Shown one piece after another: positions 3,604-53,189 of a stretch of 64,000 bases of DNA (position 1 is its first letter; each line of letters begins with the position of its first letter). The DNA comes from Escherichia phage vB_EcoA_4HA11. Where the stretch lies: the sequence record MN445184. One strand, 5' to 3'. Both the position numbers and the translations under genes were made by a program. The notes below the pieces were generated by a model. That model had not been told where the DNA came from. It saw only the letters and a list, made by a program, of their open reading frames with translations, and ran no database searches.

Positions 3604-4643
3604 CATTCGCCATACCCCCACATAAATTTCTGATCAACAGGGGAATGCAGTAATGCAGTACGAAGACCGTCATCAGCGATACGGCGTTTGTCAATTTTGG
3701 TATCATTGAGGCGACACCACAGGCAATATGACATATCCATCATCAATCCCGTGTCTGCTTGATATCCTTTCAGATGTTCTCTGATTTTACCAAAATCACT
3801 GCCGATGTCACAGTGATGTAACACGCCGAGGAATAGATTACAAATATCTTTTTGCGACTTCACTTTTTCTGAAGAGAATTCCAGCAAAGAATTGTACATC
3901 CCAGAAGAAGTTTTGGTCTTCTTAGTGATACCCCCGAGTTGTTTCCGACTAACTTCATTGTTGTAATAATGAAGATTGTTAGAAAACAGTTTGTAATACC
4001 CAACTTCGACATTCAGCACTTTCGCCAGAACTTCTTGCAGGATAGAGAATTCAATGAAATTGATTGAACTCATGCCCCACAAGACATCTTGGCTGCGGTT
4101 AATGACAGTGATATTCAATCGCCCTTCTGTTATACTGAACAATAGAGCAAGATTACAGATCATGTCCTTGGTCTTGGCTTCTCCAGTTTCACTATGGGCG
4201 GCCAAACCTTCATCTGAGTCCAGCGCCGGATCATAGATGGTGAGATACGCCTGACGGGTGTTGGGATTATTACGCAGACGGCTGATGACACTATCCAACT
4301 GGCCATTATTGTACAGACGTGGGCCATACGCGCCTCGCCAGGTTACACCGTCATCAGAGAAGTTGGCGGCGCGGGGTAAGACTTTCGAAAGGAAACGGAT
4401 ATCATTACGTCCGGACAACACCCAGAATGTCTCACCGATGGCAGCAATTGCCGACGAGTTGCGGCCTTCAACGGAAAGCCAACGGTCACGTGGATCTGAT
4501 ACTGTAATTGTTACACCATCAATGAAACGAGTGCCGTCAGTGTTAATCTCTGCGTTGCCAGGATCTGACTCAATGCCGTGTTCACGGATGGCCAACACAG
4601 CCTTCTTCAGCATATCATTATTGTTTAAAGCAAAAATTTCCAT
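3603..4643 (-). CDS. Thymidylate-synthase-fold pyrimidine C5 transferase (thymidylate synthase or dUMP hydroxymethylase) with ~90-aa C-terminal extension
   Basis: 346 aa from ATG 4643. TS motifs ETFWVLSGRNDIRFL, VTWRGAYGPRLY, NPNTRQAYLTIYDP, catalytic-Cys region KDMICNLALLF, NRSQDVLWGMSSINFIEFS. Asn sits where TS has the uracil-recognising Asn and T4 dCMP hydroxymethylase has Asp. Confidence 0.75.
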   Translation of the reverse strand: MEIFALNNNDMLKKAVLAIREHGIESDPGNAEINTDGTRFIDGVTITVSDPRDRWLSVEGRNSSAIAAIGETFWVLSGRNDIRFLSKVLPRAANFSDDGVTWRGAYGPRLYNNGQLDSVISRLRNNPNTRQAYLTIYDPALDSDEGLAAHSETGEAKTKDMICNLALLFSITEGRLNITVINRSQDVLWGMSSINFIEFSILQEVLAKVLNVEVGYYKLFSNNLHYYNNEVSRKQLGGITKKTKTSSGMYNSLLEFSSEKVKSQKDICNLFLGVLHHCDIGSDFGKIREHLKGYQADTGLMMDMSYCLWCRLNDTKIDKRRIADDGLRTALLHSPVDQKFMWGYGE

Positions 4644-40035: not shown

Positions 40036-40059
40036 AAGCCGAGGCATTAACCTCGGCTT
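40036..40059 (-). terminator. Hairpin terminator downstream of the HU-like gene
   Basis: AAGCCGAGG-CATTAA-CCTCGGCTT followed by TTTTTCG on the minus strand. Confidence 0.6.
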
Positions 40060-40118: not shown

Positions 40119-40397
40119 TTACTGGCCGTTGGCAGCAGCTTTCAGACCTTCACCGACTTTGAATTTAACTACATTTTTCGCTTCGATCTGGATCTGTTGT
40201 CCGTTCAGCGGGTTGCGGCCAGTGCGCGCTTCCTGATGTTTAACTTCGAACGCGCCGAAGCCTACGAATTGGACAGATTGGCCAGCCGCGACTGCAGTTT
40301 TCACGCCATTGATAAAAGATGCAACGATTTTCTCAGCTTCGCCTTTGGTCATACCCTGGGTTTGAGCGATGTGGGCGATAAAATCAGTACGGTTCAT
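40119..40397 (-). CDS. HU/IHF-family DNA-binding protein
   Basis: ORF track 40119..40433; ATG 40397 (MNRTDFIAHIAQ) with GGAG SD; GFGAFEVK...RTGRNP arm motif. Confidence 0.7.
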   Translation of the reverse strand: MNRTDFIAHIAQTQGMTKGEAEKIVASFINGVKTAVAAGQSVQFVGFGAFEVKHQEARTGRNPLNGQQIQIEAKNVVKFKVGEGLKAAANGQ

Positions 40398-40480
40398 TCG
40401 GATTACTCCAGTTGGTTGTTTACGATGTTTCACTACAAGAGGACTACAGCTTACCTAACAAATATTATTGAATAAAGCGT

Positions 40481-41275
40481 TTATTTGCCGACGTTCAGCA
40501 TTTTACCTGAGCCGGATCCGTCAACGATTAGAGTACATTTCCCACTGTTGGCGCAAGATTGCAACACCATGTTATATTCGTGTTGTAAATATTCAGGTGT
40601 CAGAGATGTCGTCAGTTTCTGATTCGCCTTGGCTTCTTGGTCGCGAATTTCAACGTTCTTTCTTGCTGTATCCAAACGTTTGTCGGCCATGACATTATCA
40701 CGGATAGATTGCTCAATCGAAGGATCTGTCAGCGCCTTTTTCACCAACACACGTGTGATTGTGAACATGCCAGGCGCAGCAGTTTCCAATTGCTGCTGGG
40801 TGCGTTCCTTGATCATCTTTTCTAACTCAGCCCGTTGGGTGTGAATTGTCATAGAATCCAAAGAGGAAACGGCGTCCATCGTTGAGGATGCTGCGGCGGT
40901 TTTAACCAGGTTGAATCCCACCGCTATCGTGCCGTCACCGAGTTCAGCGCTCTGACCTGCAAATTTGGTATGGAACCAAGGAACCTTCGCGACGTTCGGT
41001 GTGTAATAAACGTCCACATCCAGATCTTCCAAGGTCAGGTTGTCTTTGGCCTTTGGCGTCATTTTCGTCAGACTCACGACGGCTTCTTTAGTCGTATAGA
41101 CATCTACACTTGAAACGAAACTGGTGTAGATACCTGCGGTTACAGGGTTCATGTCCACTTCACCCCATTGGGTTCGAACACCGACGTTTCCTTCATCGAT
41201 AACACCGCCGCAGCCCGAAAGAAGGCTTGCCGCTAGGACCATAATTGCGCCAAATACCAGTTTCTTGAACATCAA
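40481..41275 (-). CDS. SPFH/band-7 domain lipoprotein
   Basis: 264 aa; signal peptide with lipobox LLSGC; SPFH-like core VGVRTQWGEV...TKMTPKAKDNLTLEDLDVDVYYT and a coiled-coil tail. Confidence 0.55.
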   Translation of the reverse strand: MMFKKLVFGAIMVLAASLLSGCGGVIDEGNVGVRTQWGEVDMNPVTAGIYTSFVSSVDVYTTKEAVVSLTKMTPKAKDNLTLEDLDVDVYYTPNVAKVPWFHTKFAGQSAELGDGTIAVGFNLVKTAAASSTMDAVSSLDSMTIHTQRAELEKMIKERTQQQLETAAPGMFTITRVLVKKALTDPSIEQSIRDNVMADKRLDTARKNVEIRDQEAKANQKLTTSLTPEYLQHEYNMVLQSCANSGKCTLIVDGSGSGKMLNVGK

Positions 41276-41490
41276 TGTACTCCTTCAAAAATGTAAATAT
41301 AAGCACCCAATGTGAGTGCAGTTATTGTAACCGAAGAAATCAGCAGTAGGAAAGTTACTCTCACCCGTTTGCGCCAACGTTTACTTCGGTAGATTTTAGT
41401 CTCTTTCAAGTATTTGAAAAAGAAAAATAAAATGAATGTTGAAATTACGAATATGAACAGATAACGGATTAACCCGATCATATTTCCCAC
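41272..41490 (-). CDS. Small membrane protein, upstream partner of the SPFH lipoprotein
   Basis: 72 aa, two TM helices separated by a basic loop (RSKRWRKRVR); ATGA overlap with the SPFH gene. Confidence 0.45.
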   Translation of the reverse strand: MGNMIGLIRYLFIFVISTFILFFFFKYLKETKIYRSKRWRKRVRVTFLLLISSVTITALTLGAYIYIFEGVH

Positions 41491-41798
41491 CCTGTGCTAC
41501 GCAGATGATCAAAATAATCGTTGAGTTCGTCAATATCTTCGATATCAACCCAACGATCATCCAGTCCCATATCATTTAGATCTTCTTCAGTCAGATCATG
41601 TTGATAAATCTGAATGCCCGAAACATTACAATAATCCGGCTTGATATTGTTGTTGAACTGGAACAAATCATAATCAGCCAGAGTATTCTTCAGGCGCTGC
41701 GCTTCTTCAAATGTTGGAACCTCAACATGAAAAGCGATCCCAGGAACCTGGGGAATATGCCAAACACGAAATTTAAGTTCAAATGGTTTATTCGACAT
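41478..41798 (-). CDS. Hypothetical protein
   Basis: 106-aa ORF. Confidence 0.4.
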   Translation of the reverse strand: MSNKPFELKFRVWHIPQVPGIAFHVEVPTFEEAQRLKNTLADYDLFQFNNNIKPDYCNVSGIQIYQHDLTEEDLNDMGLDDRWVDIEDIDELNDYFDHLRSTGWEI

Positions 41799-42117
41799 GG
41801 GGTTCTCCCTGAGACAGTATGGTTTTCATCTGTTCACGCGTGATAATTGTTTCAACAAGATTCTCGTCAATCATCATTTCGTTTAACAGTTCACAACCCA
41901 GCACGTGTGGTCGTGCCATATACGGCATGGCGTTGAGTTTTTCTTCTATGTCAAGAACGCGCTTGACGGTCAGACCCATAGAAGAAAAGGGAACAGGATA
42001 AAAGAATGAAATAATCTGGTTATCCATCCCGTTTGAAAATCTTACCAACAATACATCACACCATACGCCGGACATATTACACCTCCAGACGGTTACAATG
42101 AGAAAGCGCGTTATCAA
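41788..42117 (-). CDS. Hypothetical protein
   Basis: 109-aa ORF; the true start may be an internal Met. Confidence 0.4.
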   Translation of the reverse strand: MITRFLIVTVWRCNMSGVWCDVLLVRFSNGMDNQIISFFYPVPFSSMGLTVKRVLDIEEKLNAMPYMARPHVLGCELLNEMMIDENLVETIITREQMKTILSQGEPHVE

Positions 42118-43642: not shown

Positions 43643-43963
43643 CTATCTTTGATTTCCAACGAAATTAGTTGCAATTTCACGGCACATAGTCAAATCTTTA
43701 ATAGTCTGTTTGCTGTTGTCTGCAGCAGATTCCATCATGGGTAAATCAAGCGCATTCTCTATCTGGTCCACACTATAGAGATCAAGGCGTTTCAATTCAC
43801 CTTCATAATCAGATAAAAGGATTGATGTGTCCTTATCATCCGGATGAAATTGTTGATATGTAGACAACCAAGCAGCACAAATATTCAACTTACTGGCCTG
43901 AGCTGCCAATACTTGGGAAGACATGAAAGCGTACAGGAATAACAATAAGATTTTGATTTTCAT
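43643..43963 (-). CDS. Small secreted protein
   Basis: 106 aa; signal peptide MKIKILLLFLYAFMSSQVLAAQA. Confidence 0.45.
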   Translation of the reverse strand: MKIKILLLFLYAFMSSQVLAAQASKLNICAAWLSTYQQFHPDDKDTSILLSDYEGELKRLDLYSVDQIENALDLPMMESAADNSKQTIKDLTMCREIATNFVGNQR

Positions 43964-44649
43964 CTTTCGTTCTCCTTCATCATATTATCGCAGTCAATTC
44001 TTGTTTGCTTGAGTTCACGCGAAAGCCTTGGGTCGTCTAGATTGACAGACAAATTAGTGGAAAGATCTTTCAAACCATTCTGAACACGGTCTTCATAATA
44101 ATGATCATTTTCCACTAGCCATGCTCTCAGGCCAAGGGCGCGAGTCCGCCATTCCTTTTTCAAACGTTGATCTGATTCTTGATCAGCACTATATTCAAAT
44201 ACTCGGATACATTGGTTGCCATCATTGATGAGATCCAGCTGACGTCGGCCAACCTGCACACCTTTTTGTAATGCTGGAGAAGGAAGAGAACGGCACTGTC
44301 TTACGGTCATTCGTCCTTGTGTGCCCATACGACCAGTCATAATAAGATCGCCAGCCTCCATGCCTCCTCGGTTAAATTCTTTGTCGTTCATATATCCTTT
44401 CAGGTTGAACGCGCCTTGCTTATATCGATTAAACTCAATACCAGCATTTACAACGGCATCTGTGACATTACCTGTGGCCCAGAGTTCAGCAAAGTTCTCT
44501 ATGGAACCAGTTTTGTCTATAGCGACGGCTTGGGAGAACCCAGCACAGTAGGAAAGATCAGACCACAGTTTTTCACCCGTGGAATTCAGCTTGGCGGTGG
44601 CAGGAAGTGCCAGACCAGCCAGCACAACCCCGATGATTAAACGTTTCAT
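43960..44649 (-). CDS. Secreted protein
   Basis: ORF track 43960..44814; ATG 44649 (MKRLIIGVVLAGLALPATA signal peptide) preceded by AAGGAGA SD. Confidence 0.5.
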   Translation of the reverse strand: MKRLIIGVVLAGLALPATAKLNSTGEKLWSDLSYCAGFSQAVAIDKTGSIENFAELWATGNVTDAVVNAGIEFNRYKQGAFNLKGYMNDKEFNRGGMEAGDLIMTGRMGTQGRMTVRQCRSLPSPALQKGVQVGRRQLDLINDGNQCIRVFEYSADQESDQRLKKEWRTRALGLRAWLVENDHYYEDRVQNGLKDLSTNLSVNLDDPRLSRELKQTRIDCDNMMKENER

Positions 44650-51170: not shown

Positions 51171-53189
51171 TTAGAAAATGACTTTTACAGTACGGTTAAA
51201 CGCGCCGGACACTTTGACGAACACGTGGTTGCGTTGCGTCGTCGAGAATCCCAGACCGGACAGTTGGTTTTCATTCGGCTGGACTTTCATTTTACTACCC
51301 AACATTTCAAAAACCTTACGATGTTTATCCAGTTCCGGCTTCAGATATTCGTTGTAGAAACCACGAGTACCTTCAGGATTAGCACAGCCTTCAAGAATGA
51401 AGAACACGTGCTTGTTGCCTGTCTGCTCGCCATCCCAATGGTTTGGTGAATTCAGGACCAGCTGTACTTTCTGGAAGGTCGCAGTCTTGATACCCCAAAC
51501 TTCTTTAGACTTATCAACATTAGCCAGTTCGGACTTAATGCCAACAACTTGTTTGTCTTTAACAGTCAGGATGACTGCAGTGATACGCCCCTGATCTTTC
51601 AGGCCAGGATGGCTGAAACGATGCGTTGCGCCTTTGTATTCTACTTCGACTTCAAACCCTTCGTCGATTTTTTCACGTTGATTGTAGTTGTGGATTTCGA
51701 AACGGTATTCACCATCGCGCAGCTTGCTTTCATCTGTAAAGATGATATTTTCCACCGGGGCGCGGTTTGGATCAATACCATCCATACCGTTCATATCGAT
51801 ATCCAGATGGGCACCTGTCATAGAGCGGCGATCACGGAAGTAAACGTGCTCCATGTTGTTGAACATATGCAGATCGAGGTCGTCGTTGTTGTGCCACGCC
51901 AAGGAAACGCGCAGATACCCGTCAACTTTACCACCAGCAGCCTTTACACGTTCTTTAATGGAATCGGTCACTTCACCGTTGTAAGACCAGGAGAAACCGT
52001 TGTTCCACTTGAACAGGTTAGGCGCATCTGGGTTCGCCGGAGCAACCAGGGACATCAGGTTGCTAGTATGAGAATTCTCTACAAGCACTTCCATTGAATG
52101 CGCTTTTGGCAGAACATTGCTCAGGAAATCATCAACGCTGATCTCTTCAACTTTTTCCAGGGATTTGGTCGGAGTTTTCACTTCGGCGGCCAGCTGTGCA
52201 AACGGATCCATCGCTTTCTGAGCGGCCAGATCTGCGAACAGAACGTTGTTGATTGTCAGATCATCGTAAACCGCATAACGACGCGCCAGTGAGTCTTCCA
52301 AACCCAGAGCAATAACTTCTTTCTGAGCGTTTTCGATCATGGATTTTGAAACCAGCGCTGTCGGACGTTTGTAGTTCGCCGGAGCAACTTTGGATTCAAA
52401 CGATTTAACAGCCTTTTCCAGTTCCACGCCTTCGCTGATATCTGTCAGCAGAGTGCCGATAACTGTGTTGCGGATGCCGTGTGGAACATGATTGTTTGAA
52501 CGGTATCCAGTATGCCACGCCCACAGAGAACGGGCTGATTCGGGGACTTGTTCATATGCCTTTTTGGTTTCAACAAATCCCTTCACTGCTGCTTTGTGTT
52601 CTGCGCCGCGATACAGAGAATTCTGGTCAATCAGTTCCAGAACGATTTCAGCTGATTCCAGAGTAATTTCACGCAGACCGCGTTCAAACAATTCAATAGC
52701 CTGGCGAATTTCACCTTTTTTCGAAGCGATTGCGTCCGGACGCAGAACATAGCTACCAAGTAATTGGGTATGGAAATGATTGTAAGTACGGATTTTGCCA
52801 TCTTCACCAGATTCGTGATTGTGAGACAGGCCGACTTTGGCAGAATCGTTAAAATAAACATCGACGATTGCGTGTTGTTTGACATACGCGGAAAGAGCCG
52901 CAGCCACCACGTCATATTCATTACCCAGATCAATGTTGTCCCAGATAGAAATTACGTTCAGTTCTGAATCGATGGTGACAACACCGCCGATGTTACGGAT
53001 GAATTGTTTACAGCAGGTGCAATCGTGTTCAGTACGTTCGCGGTACAGCGGGTTAGTACCAGCAGGGAAAGATGCCAGATACAGATCCCAAAGAGCATCT
53101 TTATCGATATTGGTCATGAACAGACCAGTTGCGGACATCGCCAGCACGTTGTTATTAACTGCCGTTGCGAAGGGTTTGAATTCTGCCAT
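51171..53189 (-). CDS. Large hypothetical protein (672 aa)
   Basis: Long ORF; no Walker or polymerase motifs seen; Cys cluster HDCTCCKQF near the N-terminus. Confidence 0.55.
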   Translation of the reverse strand: MAEFKPFATAVNNNVLAMSATGLFMTNIDKDALWDLYLASFPAGTNPLYRERTEHDCTCCKQFIRNIGGVVTIDSELNVISIWDNIDLGNEYDVVAAALSAYVKQHAIVDVYFNDSAKVGLSHNHESGEDGKIRTYNHFHTQLLGSYVLRPDAIASKKGEIRQAIELFERGLREITLESAEIVLELIDQNSLYRGAEHKAAVKGFVETKKAYEQVPESARSLWAWHTGYRSNNHVPHGIRNTVIGTLLTDISEGVELEKAVKSFESKVAPANYKRPTALVSKSMIENAQKEVIALGLEDSLARRYAVYDDLTINNVLFADLAAQKAMDPFAQLAAEVKTPTKSLEKVEEISVDDFLSNVLPKAHSMEVLVENSHTSNLMSLVAPANPDAPNLFKWNNGFSWSYNGEVTDSIKERVKAAGGKVDGYLRVSLAWHNNDDLDLHMFNNMEHVYFRDRRSMTGAHLDIDMNGMDGIDPNRAPVENIIFTDESKLRDGEYRFEIHNYNQREKIDEGFEVEVEYKGATHRFSHPGLKDQGRITAVILTVKDKQVVGIKSELANVDKSKEVWGIKTATFQKVQLVLNSPNHWDGEQTGNKHVFFILEGCANPEGTRGFYNEYLKPELDKHRKVFEMLGSKMKVQPNENQLSGLGFSTTQRNHVFVKVSGAFNRTVKVIF

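Follow-up and report, generated by a model that had tools for sequence, protein, structure and literature searches.

SPFH (band-7) proteins such as prohibitin, erlin, HflK/C, stomatin, QmcA, and flotillin all form large membrane-attached cages, and the SPFH cages of HflK/C, prohibitin, stomatin, flotillin, and erlin have recently been solved structurally (PMC12478178). What these cages enclose, and why, is still debated. The described systems closest to the locus reported here are HflK/HflC of Escherichia coli, a cage around FtsH (PDB 7vhp, 7wi3, and 9cz2), and the SPFH-NfeD operons (QmcA-YbbJ, PDB 8z5g; stomatin PH1511/PH1510; FloT-YuaF), in which the gene of an SPFH-fold protein has beside it a co-expressed gene for a small membrane protein. 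SPFH proteins have also been annotated in phages: in T4-like phages in 2006 (ORFs of 44RR, Aeh1, and RB43; PMC1524935), in Burkholderia phage CSP3 (orf75; PMC10269572), in Gibbsiella phage GIB1 (PMC13239085), and in Kuttervirus (orf126/gp200; Sajous1 gp200, PMC10892097). Here we describe an SPFH lipoprotein gene and the small two-transmembrane (TM) hairpin gene that overlaps it in a 64,000-nt stretch of Escherichia phage vB_EcoA_4HA11 (MN445184), which is called the window below and whose first letter is position 1. The SPFH lipoprotein is already known, since GenBank annotates it as 'SPFH domain band 7 family protein' or 'lipoprotein'. The phage proteins outside Kuttervirus are likened to it by their SPFH annotation, and the reports on annotated phage SPFH proteins mention no hairpin partner, no switch from a TM anchor to a lipobox, and no function. 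The strict phage-specific pairing with the hairpin, the TM-to-lipid anchor switch relative to cellular relatives, and the natural co-deletion of the two genes, for which no report was found, appear to be new, as does the distinction of the hairpin from NfeD.

The window is a Kuttervirus (Ackermannviridae) genome of the ViI/CBA120 group of Salmonella and E. coli phages. The 2-kb stretch around the gene pair is 99.8% identical to Salmonella phages LPST94 and dinky, 98% to Escherichia phage CBA120, and 97.7% to Det7; the initial annotation, which was made from the sequence alone and had spoken of a lytic phage, was right in this respect. All genes of the region around the pair lie on the minus strand.

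The SPFH gene (40481..41272, minus strand) encodes a prolipoprotein of 263 aa plus stop and corresponds to CBA120 orf126. It was identified by its open reading frame (ORF), by Pfam and PHROG matches, and by a structural model. A TTG one codon upstream of the ATG, at 41275, is an alternative start that would yield 264 aa. The product matched Pfam Band_7 (PF01145) with E=1.2e-12 and 48.7 bits (cut-off 23.6); the match spans residues 24-209 and profile positions 2-169 of 176 (168/176 covered). It is also a member of phrog_200, 'lipoprotein' (E=7e-58). The N-terminus, MFKKLVFGAIMVLAASLLSGC, satisfies the PROSITE PS51257 pattern, which combines a basic n-region, a hydrophobic core, and a lipobox [LVI][ASTVI][GAS]C with its Cys at position 15-35; here the basic residues are K3 and K4, and the lipobox LSGC ends at Cys21. 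This predicted lipoprotein signal peptide with its lipobox (residues 1-21; 41210..41272, minus strand) would place the lipid on Cys21. A homologue search returned 59 proteins, all with Band_7, and the lipobox was kept in 48 of them. The profile match, the fold described below, and the conserved lipobox signal uphold the earlier description of a lipobox-bearing SPFH-domain protein. The protein is expressed, as mass spectrometry detected Sajous1 gp200 (PMC10892097).

An AlphaFold model of the monomer, calculated from a 33-sequence alignment (mean pLDDT 85.7), consists of a beta-rich SPFH1/2 body, helices at residues 184-223 and 226-242, and a poorly ordered tail that holds a TLIVDG strand. The SPFH1/SPFH2 domain (residues 24-209; 40646..41203, minus strand) was placed by the Pfam envelope together with the strands and helices of the model, and the long coiled-coil-type helices (residues 184-242) with the C-terminal strand TLIVDG (40484..40723, minus strand) by the model's secondary structure. 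Searches of PDB chain sequences gave no significant SPFH match, either for the protein alone or for a 33-sequence profile, with which HflC was reached only at E of about 0.5-0.8 and only at the N-terminus. By Foldseek, in contrast, 230-286 columns of the model were aligned to complete cage-forming SPFH protomers with a probability of 1.00; the E values were 3e-13 for human prohibitin, 6e-12 for HflK/C, and 1e-8 for QmcA of the QmcA-YbbJ complex, and erlin1/2, stomatin, and flotillin were further matches. The alignment includes the helix equivalent to the wall helix of cage-forming SPFH proteins. By this full-length alignment, the modelled protein has every part of a cage-type SPFH protomer. 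Since all solved SPFH complexes assemble into rings or cages (PMC12478178), the phage protein would be expected, by analogy, to do the same.

The gene directly upstream (41272..41481, minus strand) was identified as an ORF for a two-TM hairpin protein of 69 aa and corresponds to CBA120 orf127A and phrog_11680. Its start is either GTG 41490 (72 aa) or ATG 41481 (69 aa), of which the latter is more probable and is the one annotated in CBA120. Hydropathy placed the hydrophobic segments at about residues 4-22 and 42-60. Between them lies a basic loop, KYLKETKIYRSKRWRKRVR (residues 23-41; 41359..41415, minus strand), in which 10 of the 19 residues are K or R. Only 4-6 residues follow the second helix (TM2), and the charge sits in the inter-helix loop. 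By the positive-inside rule, the loop is predicted to be cytoplasmic and both short ends periplasmic. The hairpin TGA overlaps the SPFH ATG by one base (TGATG), and the Shine-Dalgarno sequence of the SPFH gene, AAGGAG (41280-41285, minus strand), lies 7 nt before this ATG, inside the last hairpin codons; phage Mutine has a ribosome-binding site annotated at the equivalent place. The hairpin ATG in turn overlaps the stop of the upstream gp17-like gene (ATGA). A membrane protein in one operon with the SPFH gene was thus found in the window and in Erwinia phage Bue1 (TGATG in both) and in the metagenomic phage locus L006 (ATGA). Translational coupling of the SPFH gene to an upstream two-helix membrane protein had been proposed from the letters of the window, and the TGATG overlap and the hydropathy agree with it; the 72 aa then given for the partner correspond to the ORF from GTG 41490, but the 69-aa form is the more probable one. 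When the window hairpin and 16 orthologous ones were compared with Pfam at a limit of E<=1, no consistent family was found among the 17.

We then considered how regularly the two genes occur together. A hairpin detectable by sequence was found only in Kuttervirus, in 156 records that are all at least 95% identical. In Bue1, whose SPFH protein is 54% identical to that of the window, a 64-aa two-TM ORF with the same TGATG overlap is present (locus L002 2804-2998, NC_048702) but unannotated in RefSeq; its best tblastn match was the window hairpin, at E=0.05. On the contigs of homologues P0016, P0018, and P0042, a 57-66-aa two-TM ORF lies directly upstream, in one case uncalled by the source; in L004-L006 (B. 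gladioli and JGI contigs), a hairpin precedes the SPFH gene. The same was true of 17/17 diverse IMG/VR phage loci, in which the SPFH protein is 37-53% identical; the spacing between the two genes was at most about 30 nt in 16 of these and 205 nt in L029. The chance rate at which a small two-TM ORF abuts a long ORF was about 1 in 123 in related loci (~1%), and the window has one such ORF among its other 64 long ORFs. Bacterial loci were taken from Steroidobacteraceae, Zoogloea, Methyloversatilis, Burkholderiales, Ectothiorhodospiraceae, and others; by a lenient test, a hairpin was present in 2 of the 62 with usable upstream sequence. One of these two "hairpins" is part of a larger membrane protein, namely its tail, and the other belongs to Massilia, the single lipobox-bearing locus, and lies on a 113-kb contig resembling the ~110-kb module-bearing phage contigs. 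More distant phage members, Acinetobacter phage Ab15 among them, lack the hairpin.

The anchor of the SPFH protein showed a similar division. Relatives down to about 37% identity retain a lipobox (L[ST]GC, LTAC, LVGC, and so on), and the spacer between the lipid Cys and the first SPFH strand ([IV][DE]xGxVGV) is usually just 2-4 residues long. Most lipobox relatives also have a CX5-6C pair just before the C-terminal strand, which in the window is the CX5C pair Cys240/Cys246 (40535-40555, minus strand); to judge from the sequence, this pair is consistent with a periplasmic disulfide. The most distant of the 59 homologues have an uncleaved N-terminal TM helix in place of the lipobox, and no Cys pair. 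The cellular relatives are named HflC-like by JGI, and the neighbours of TM-anchored relatives, in the three contexts examined, are housekeeping genes, e.g., those for thiolase, arginase, pyruvate kinase, PhoU, and GST. An exhaustive profile search extended the family to 1777 clusters of 50% identity at E<=1e-3, with 126 at E<=1e-30. Many of the more distant members have the lipobox without the Cys pair; a strict covariation of CX5C and lipobox, which is true in the close clade, fails across the wider lipobox-bearing family and was rejected. On the basis of this survey of anchors and upstream ORFs, the phage clade is defined by lipobox and hairpin (with the Cys pair in the close clade) and the cellular clade by the TM anchor alone.

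The pair has been lost naturally. In Kuttervirus GG32, STP55, and SeHz-1, an in-frame deletion has fused hairpin residues 1-17 to SPFH residues 198-263, the junction reading MIGLIRYLFIFVITTFI followed by KRLDTARKN.... The remnant lies at L103 2450-2701 (GG32), L104 2450-2701 (STP55), and 52841-53038 of SeHz-1 (MN871502). The annotation of this remnant of 83 aa in STP55 reads 'SPFH domain band 7 family protein'. A tblastn search of 50,697 phage records found the SPFH protein in Kuttervirus, in four Erwinia phages, and in a few distant matches, and found none in the Dickeya, Klebsiella, Shigella, and Serratia members of Ackermannviridae. Since three isolates have deleted the pair and other Ackermannviridae genera do not have it, the module is accessory, which argues against a holin or spanin role. 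The same two observations weaken the role in lysis timing that the initial annotation had suggested. The pair may act in membrane organisation or superinfection exclusion, as was also suggested there.

Here, we propose a model for the pair by summarizing the above results. The two co-translated Kuttervirus genes would constitute a conserved, phage-specific accessory module. The 69-aa hairpin would reside in the inner membrane with its ends periplasmic and its strongly basic loop cytoplasmic. The prolipoprotein would be cleaved and lipidated at Cys21, and the mature product would be a complete SPFH protomer (SPFH1/2, long wall helix, and C-terminal strand), held on the periplasmic membrane surface by the 2-4 residue tether and probably carrying the CX5C disulfide. 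Its periplasmic orientation is suggested by the signal peptide and the Cys pair. At the inner membrane, oligomers of the lipoprotein would build a ring or dome like that of HflK/C on the periplasmic side. The hairpin would be the transmembrane component, as palisade or enclosed client, and during infection ring and hairpin together would set a patch of the host membrane apart. The phage clade may have derived from N-terminally TM-anchored HflC-like proteins of Proteobacteria, with the lipid anchor replacing the TM anchor. The most plausible roles would be envelope protection, exclusion directed at competing phages or at host defences that act on the membrane, or an FtsH-type modulation. We regard as about evenly balanced the probability that the pair is a co-translated phage accessory module forming an HflK/C-like periplasmic ring at the inner membrane with the hairpin as its TM partner, and that it has an envelope-guarding or exclusion role, with lysis unlikely.

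A membrane-guarding theme is suggested by the neighbouring genes, namely the gp17-like gene in Ackermannviridae and rIIA/rIIB together with a Bax1-I/YccA-like gene in L006/L007. There may also be a functional analogy with T4 Imm/Sp, T5 Llp, Cor, and HK97 gp15, which are likewise small inner-membrane or periplasmic proteins or lipoproteins of lytic phages that act on the envelope, but no sequence or family relationship to these was detected. A more specific version, which we consider unlikely, is that phages evolved a two-part SPFH nanocompartment, in which a lipid-anchored cage and a two-helix palisade or client encoded in trans assemble early in infection on the periplasmic side of the host inner membrane and shield a membrane patch. 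Such a compartment could block the entry of superinfecting phage DNA or neutralise membrane-depolarising abortive-infection effectors, the territory of rII and Imm. If this is true, the phage pair would provide the first case of an SPFH cage whose viral function is defined, and a cage with its client in a minimal form amenable to genetics. The phage version, with a single cage gene, a lipid in place of the TM anchor, a hairpin of 55-70 aa as obligatory partner, and natural deletion mutants, might be an unusually simple system for the effect of an SPFH cage on a membrane patch. As a widespread accessory envelope module of ViI-like phages, which are used for the biocontrol of Salmonella and E. 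coli O157, it could matter for host range, for the exclusion of superinfecting phages, or for how the phage withstands host defences.

Several observations weigh against the inner-membrane ring with a hairpin partner. No experimental function for any phage SPFH protein was found in the literature searched. The model is a monomer whose last 20 residues are of low confidence (pLDDT 46-67); a C-terminus modelled in this way is compatible with a segment that becomes ordered only in the oligomer. The hairpins are barely alignable, with a mean column identity of 30% and no invariant column, so that their homology rests on position, size, and topology. The acidic residue that seems conserved after TM2 falls on the GGAG of the embedded Shine-Dalgarno sequence, which may be all that it reflects, and it was therefore set aside as a functional motif. 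The functional hints from neighbours are weak and not conserved across phages. Finally, residue +2 after the lipid Cys is Gly in 31/44 homologues and Asp only once.

The last point favours another location, because a Gly at +2 is not a classical Lol-avoidance signal and therefore predicts the outer membrane. A scaffold there could stabilise the outer membrane, mask receptors like T5 Llp or Cor, or promote vesicles, and the hairpin would act separately in the inner membrane or only aid biogenesis. In favour of this explanation, lipoproteins are known by which phages bring about exclusion at the outer membrane. The prophage-borne HflK/C-like protein PM0222 of P. multocida, which was found in outer-membrane vesicles (PMC9872710), also counts for it, but PM0222 is not a detectable relative: tblastn at E<=1e-3 gave no match in Pasteurella or Mannheimia. 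It was rejected as an experimental precedent for want of a detectable relationship to the phage clade and is a loose analogy only. The outer membrane is also difficult to reconcile with the partner, an inner-membrane hairpin with next to no periplasmic domain, to which the SPFH gene is tightly coupled and with which it strictly co-occurs. The same is true of the tether, whose 2-4 residues fall well short of the length of disordered linkers that promote Lol export. Outer-membrane lipoproteins whose disordered linker was removed or shortened were partly retained in the inner membrane (10.1101/2021.01.05.425367). The short tether, this linker-dependent retention, and a partner unable to span the periplasm lead us to favour the inner membrane, on the side of HflK/C, and to regard the outer membrane as rather unlikely. 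The phage ring might instead imitate or compete with host HflK/C at that membrane and alter the reach of the FtsH protease, with the hairpin as an FtsH-binding client or inhibitor, YccA-like. The phage protein shares with HflK/HflC the SPFH1/2 domains, the long wall helix, and the C-terminal segment; its bulk would be on the same, periplasmic side of the inner membrane, and its N-terminus would be fixed in the membrane almost without a spacer. HflK/C was among the structural matches, the cellular relatives bear HflC-like names, and the module of a related metagenomic phage has a Bax1-I/YccA-family gene at a distance of 3.5 kb. Unlike HflK/HflC, however, the phage has one SPFH gene rather than a K/C pair, a lipid anchor for the TM helix, and a separate two-TM hairpin. 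Neither NCBIfam HflK nor HflC was matched at E<=1, so that membership in these families was rejected, the PDB profile search reached HflC only marginally, and the Bax1-I neighbour is confined to one lineage. We consider a mimic directed at FtsH improbable.

Both genes could also be read as known two-gene systems of other kinds. The resemblance to SPFH/NfeD membrane scaffold pairs, which had been noted at the outset, would make the locus a canonical SPFH-NfeD operon and the small protein a degenerate NfeD. A membrane partner is indeed co-transcribed with the SPFH gene, and QmcA, of QmcA-YbbJ, was among the structural matches. However, the window hairpin had no Pfam match, to NfeD or otherwise, and no OB domain, PF01957 was matched at E<=1 by none of the 17 hairpins, and at 55-70 aa, two TM helices leave no space for an OB-fold. 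The phage partner thus has neither the OB-fold NfeD domain nor a protease domain, and the SPFH protein is a lipoprotein that would face the periplasm, whereas QmcA-type SPFH domains are cytoplasmic. The likeness therefore lies in operon logic only; identity as a canonical SPFH/NfeD pair was rejected, and a degenerate NfeD is very improbable. A lysis function, in which the hairpin would be a small class-II-like holin or antiholin and the lipoprotein a spanin-like outer-membrane component, has in its favour that no holin or spanin was reliably identified in this phage type according to the Mutine genome paper (PMC6509533), and that the pair consists of a small two-TM protein and a lipoprotein. 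In addition, a homologue of phrog_3843, 'Rz-like spanin', lies ~2.2 kb upstream in the same direction (43658-43963), and a LysM protein is inserted beside the hairpin in some isolates. Spanins are required for lysis and consist of an i-spanin (N-terminal TM and periplasmic coiled coil) with a small outer-membrane lipoprotein, or of a lipoprotein with a C-terminal TM. The pair is instead a two-TM hairpin without a periplasmic domain that could reach the outer membrane, and hence not an i-spanin, and a 242-aa globular SPFH lipoprotein without a C-terminal TM segment, and hence not a u-spanin. Class II holins are small two-TM proteins with a charged cytoplasmic C-terminal tail, encoded next to the endolysin and essential for lysis. 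The hairpin shows the opposite, with its basic residues in the loop and hardly any tail at the C-terminus, none of the adjacent genes encodes a catalytic endolysin, and the gene is dispensable; the only Pfam holin match among the 17 hairpins was LydA, in one of them and sub-threshold at E=0.03. Membership in either class was rejected. Recurrent neighbours of the module are nucleic-acid enzymes rather than lysis genes, and other Ackermannviridae genera do without it. Since GG32, STP55, and SeHz-1 are viable with most of both genes deleted, a lysis function is largely refuted, and we consider it extremely unlikely.

In the window, the gene upstream of the hairpin is P22 gp17-like (PF17420; 41478..41798, minus strand; Pfam GP17 E=1.2e-49), of a family that Pfam labels 'superinfection exclusion gene product 17'. 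A DUF7425 gene (41788-42075, minus strand) lies upstream of it, the two overlapping, so that a chain of overlapping frames runs from the DUF7425 gene through the gp17-like gene and the hairpin to the SPFH gene; it probably ends after an HU/IHF-like gene (40119-40433, minus strand; Pfam Bac_DNA_binding E=1e-29). The start of the latter is ambiguous, with 104 aa from GTG in the window and 92 aa annotated in CBA120. A GC-rich hairpin at 40036-40059, between the HU and helicase genes, occupies a site whose equivalent in Mutine is annotated as a terminator. The gp17-like gene was rejected as a third part of the module, as it has another position in Bue1, two genes downstream of the module, and is not near the module in other phages.

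The neighbours differ in other phages. In a metagenomic lineage (L006 612-8270, also L007), the module directly follows rIIA-rIIB; the order is rIIA, rIIB, an uncalled hairpin (3831-4004), the SPFH lipoprotein, a 242-aa N-terminally hydrophobic protein, and, further on, the Bax1-I/YccA-family gene (E=5.5e-53); such a clustering of membrane-integrity genes is unusual. In other phages, the genes that recur beside the module are those of an RNase T-like exonuclease and an RNA ligase, and they suggest that it lies among early genes. A sigma-70 promoter scan gave 16 hits against 12 ± 4 expected, which is not above chance, and the T4-type late promoter TATAAATA was neither found near the module nor enriched. 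The literature search gave nothing relevant on a Kuttervirus transcriptome, and a PADLOC search gave nothing useful.

Homologues of two Bue1 genes lie upstream of the module in the same orientation. One is the above phrog_3843 homologue, which matches gp093 of Bue1 (minus strand; tblastn E=3e-13), and the other, at 44257-44553 (minus strand), is a homologue of the secreted Bue1 protein gp094. In place of a TM anchor, Bue1 gp093 appears to have a signal peptide that looks cleavable, and no lipoprotein gene was seen adjacent to it. In view of the statement on spanins in the Mutine paper, the PHROG spanin label of the gp093 family deserves checking. In some Kutterviruses, the gp17-like gene and the hairpin are separated by an extra LysM-only gene for 102 aa (Pfam LysM E=1e-11), which likewise has ATGA overlaps (L008 1196-1504 in phage Mutine; 2145-2453 in both L103 and L104, of GG32 and STP55); it is labelled 'endolysin' in RefSeq despite having no catalytic domain, and is not present in the window.

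Annotation of the hairpin gene is lacking in several genomes (Bue1 and JGI contigs), and the genes beside it carry wrong labels in some cases. In Bue1, the 650-nt stretch that is 'empty' in RefSeq holds three plausible small ORFs. Several module carriers, namely L004 (B. gladioli assembly), L038 (Massilia assembly), L019, L020, L022, L026, and L034, are contigs of 107-114 kb and may be complete genomes of one Burkholderiales group of ~110-kb phages or phage-plasmids. Kuttervirus sequence whose SPFH protein is 100% identical to that of the window is contained in OR844945.1 ('Enterococcus phage Efm 3-10', 7.9 kb) and in a record labelled 'Pseudomonas', most likely owing to contamination or mislabelling.

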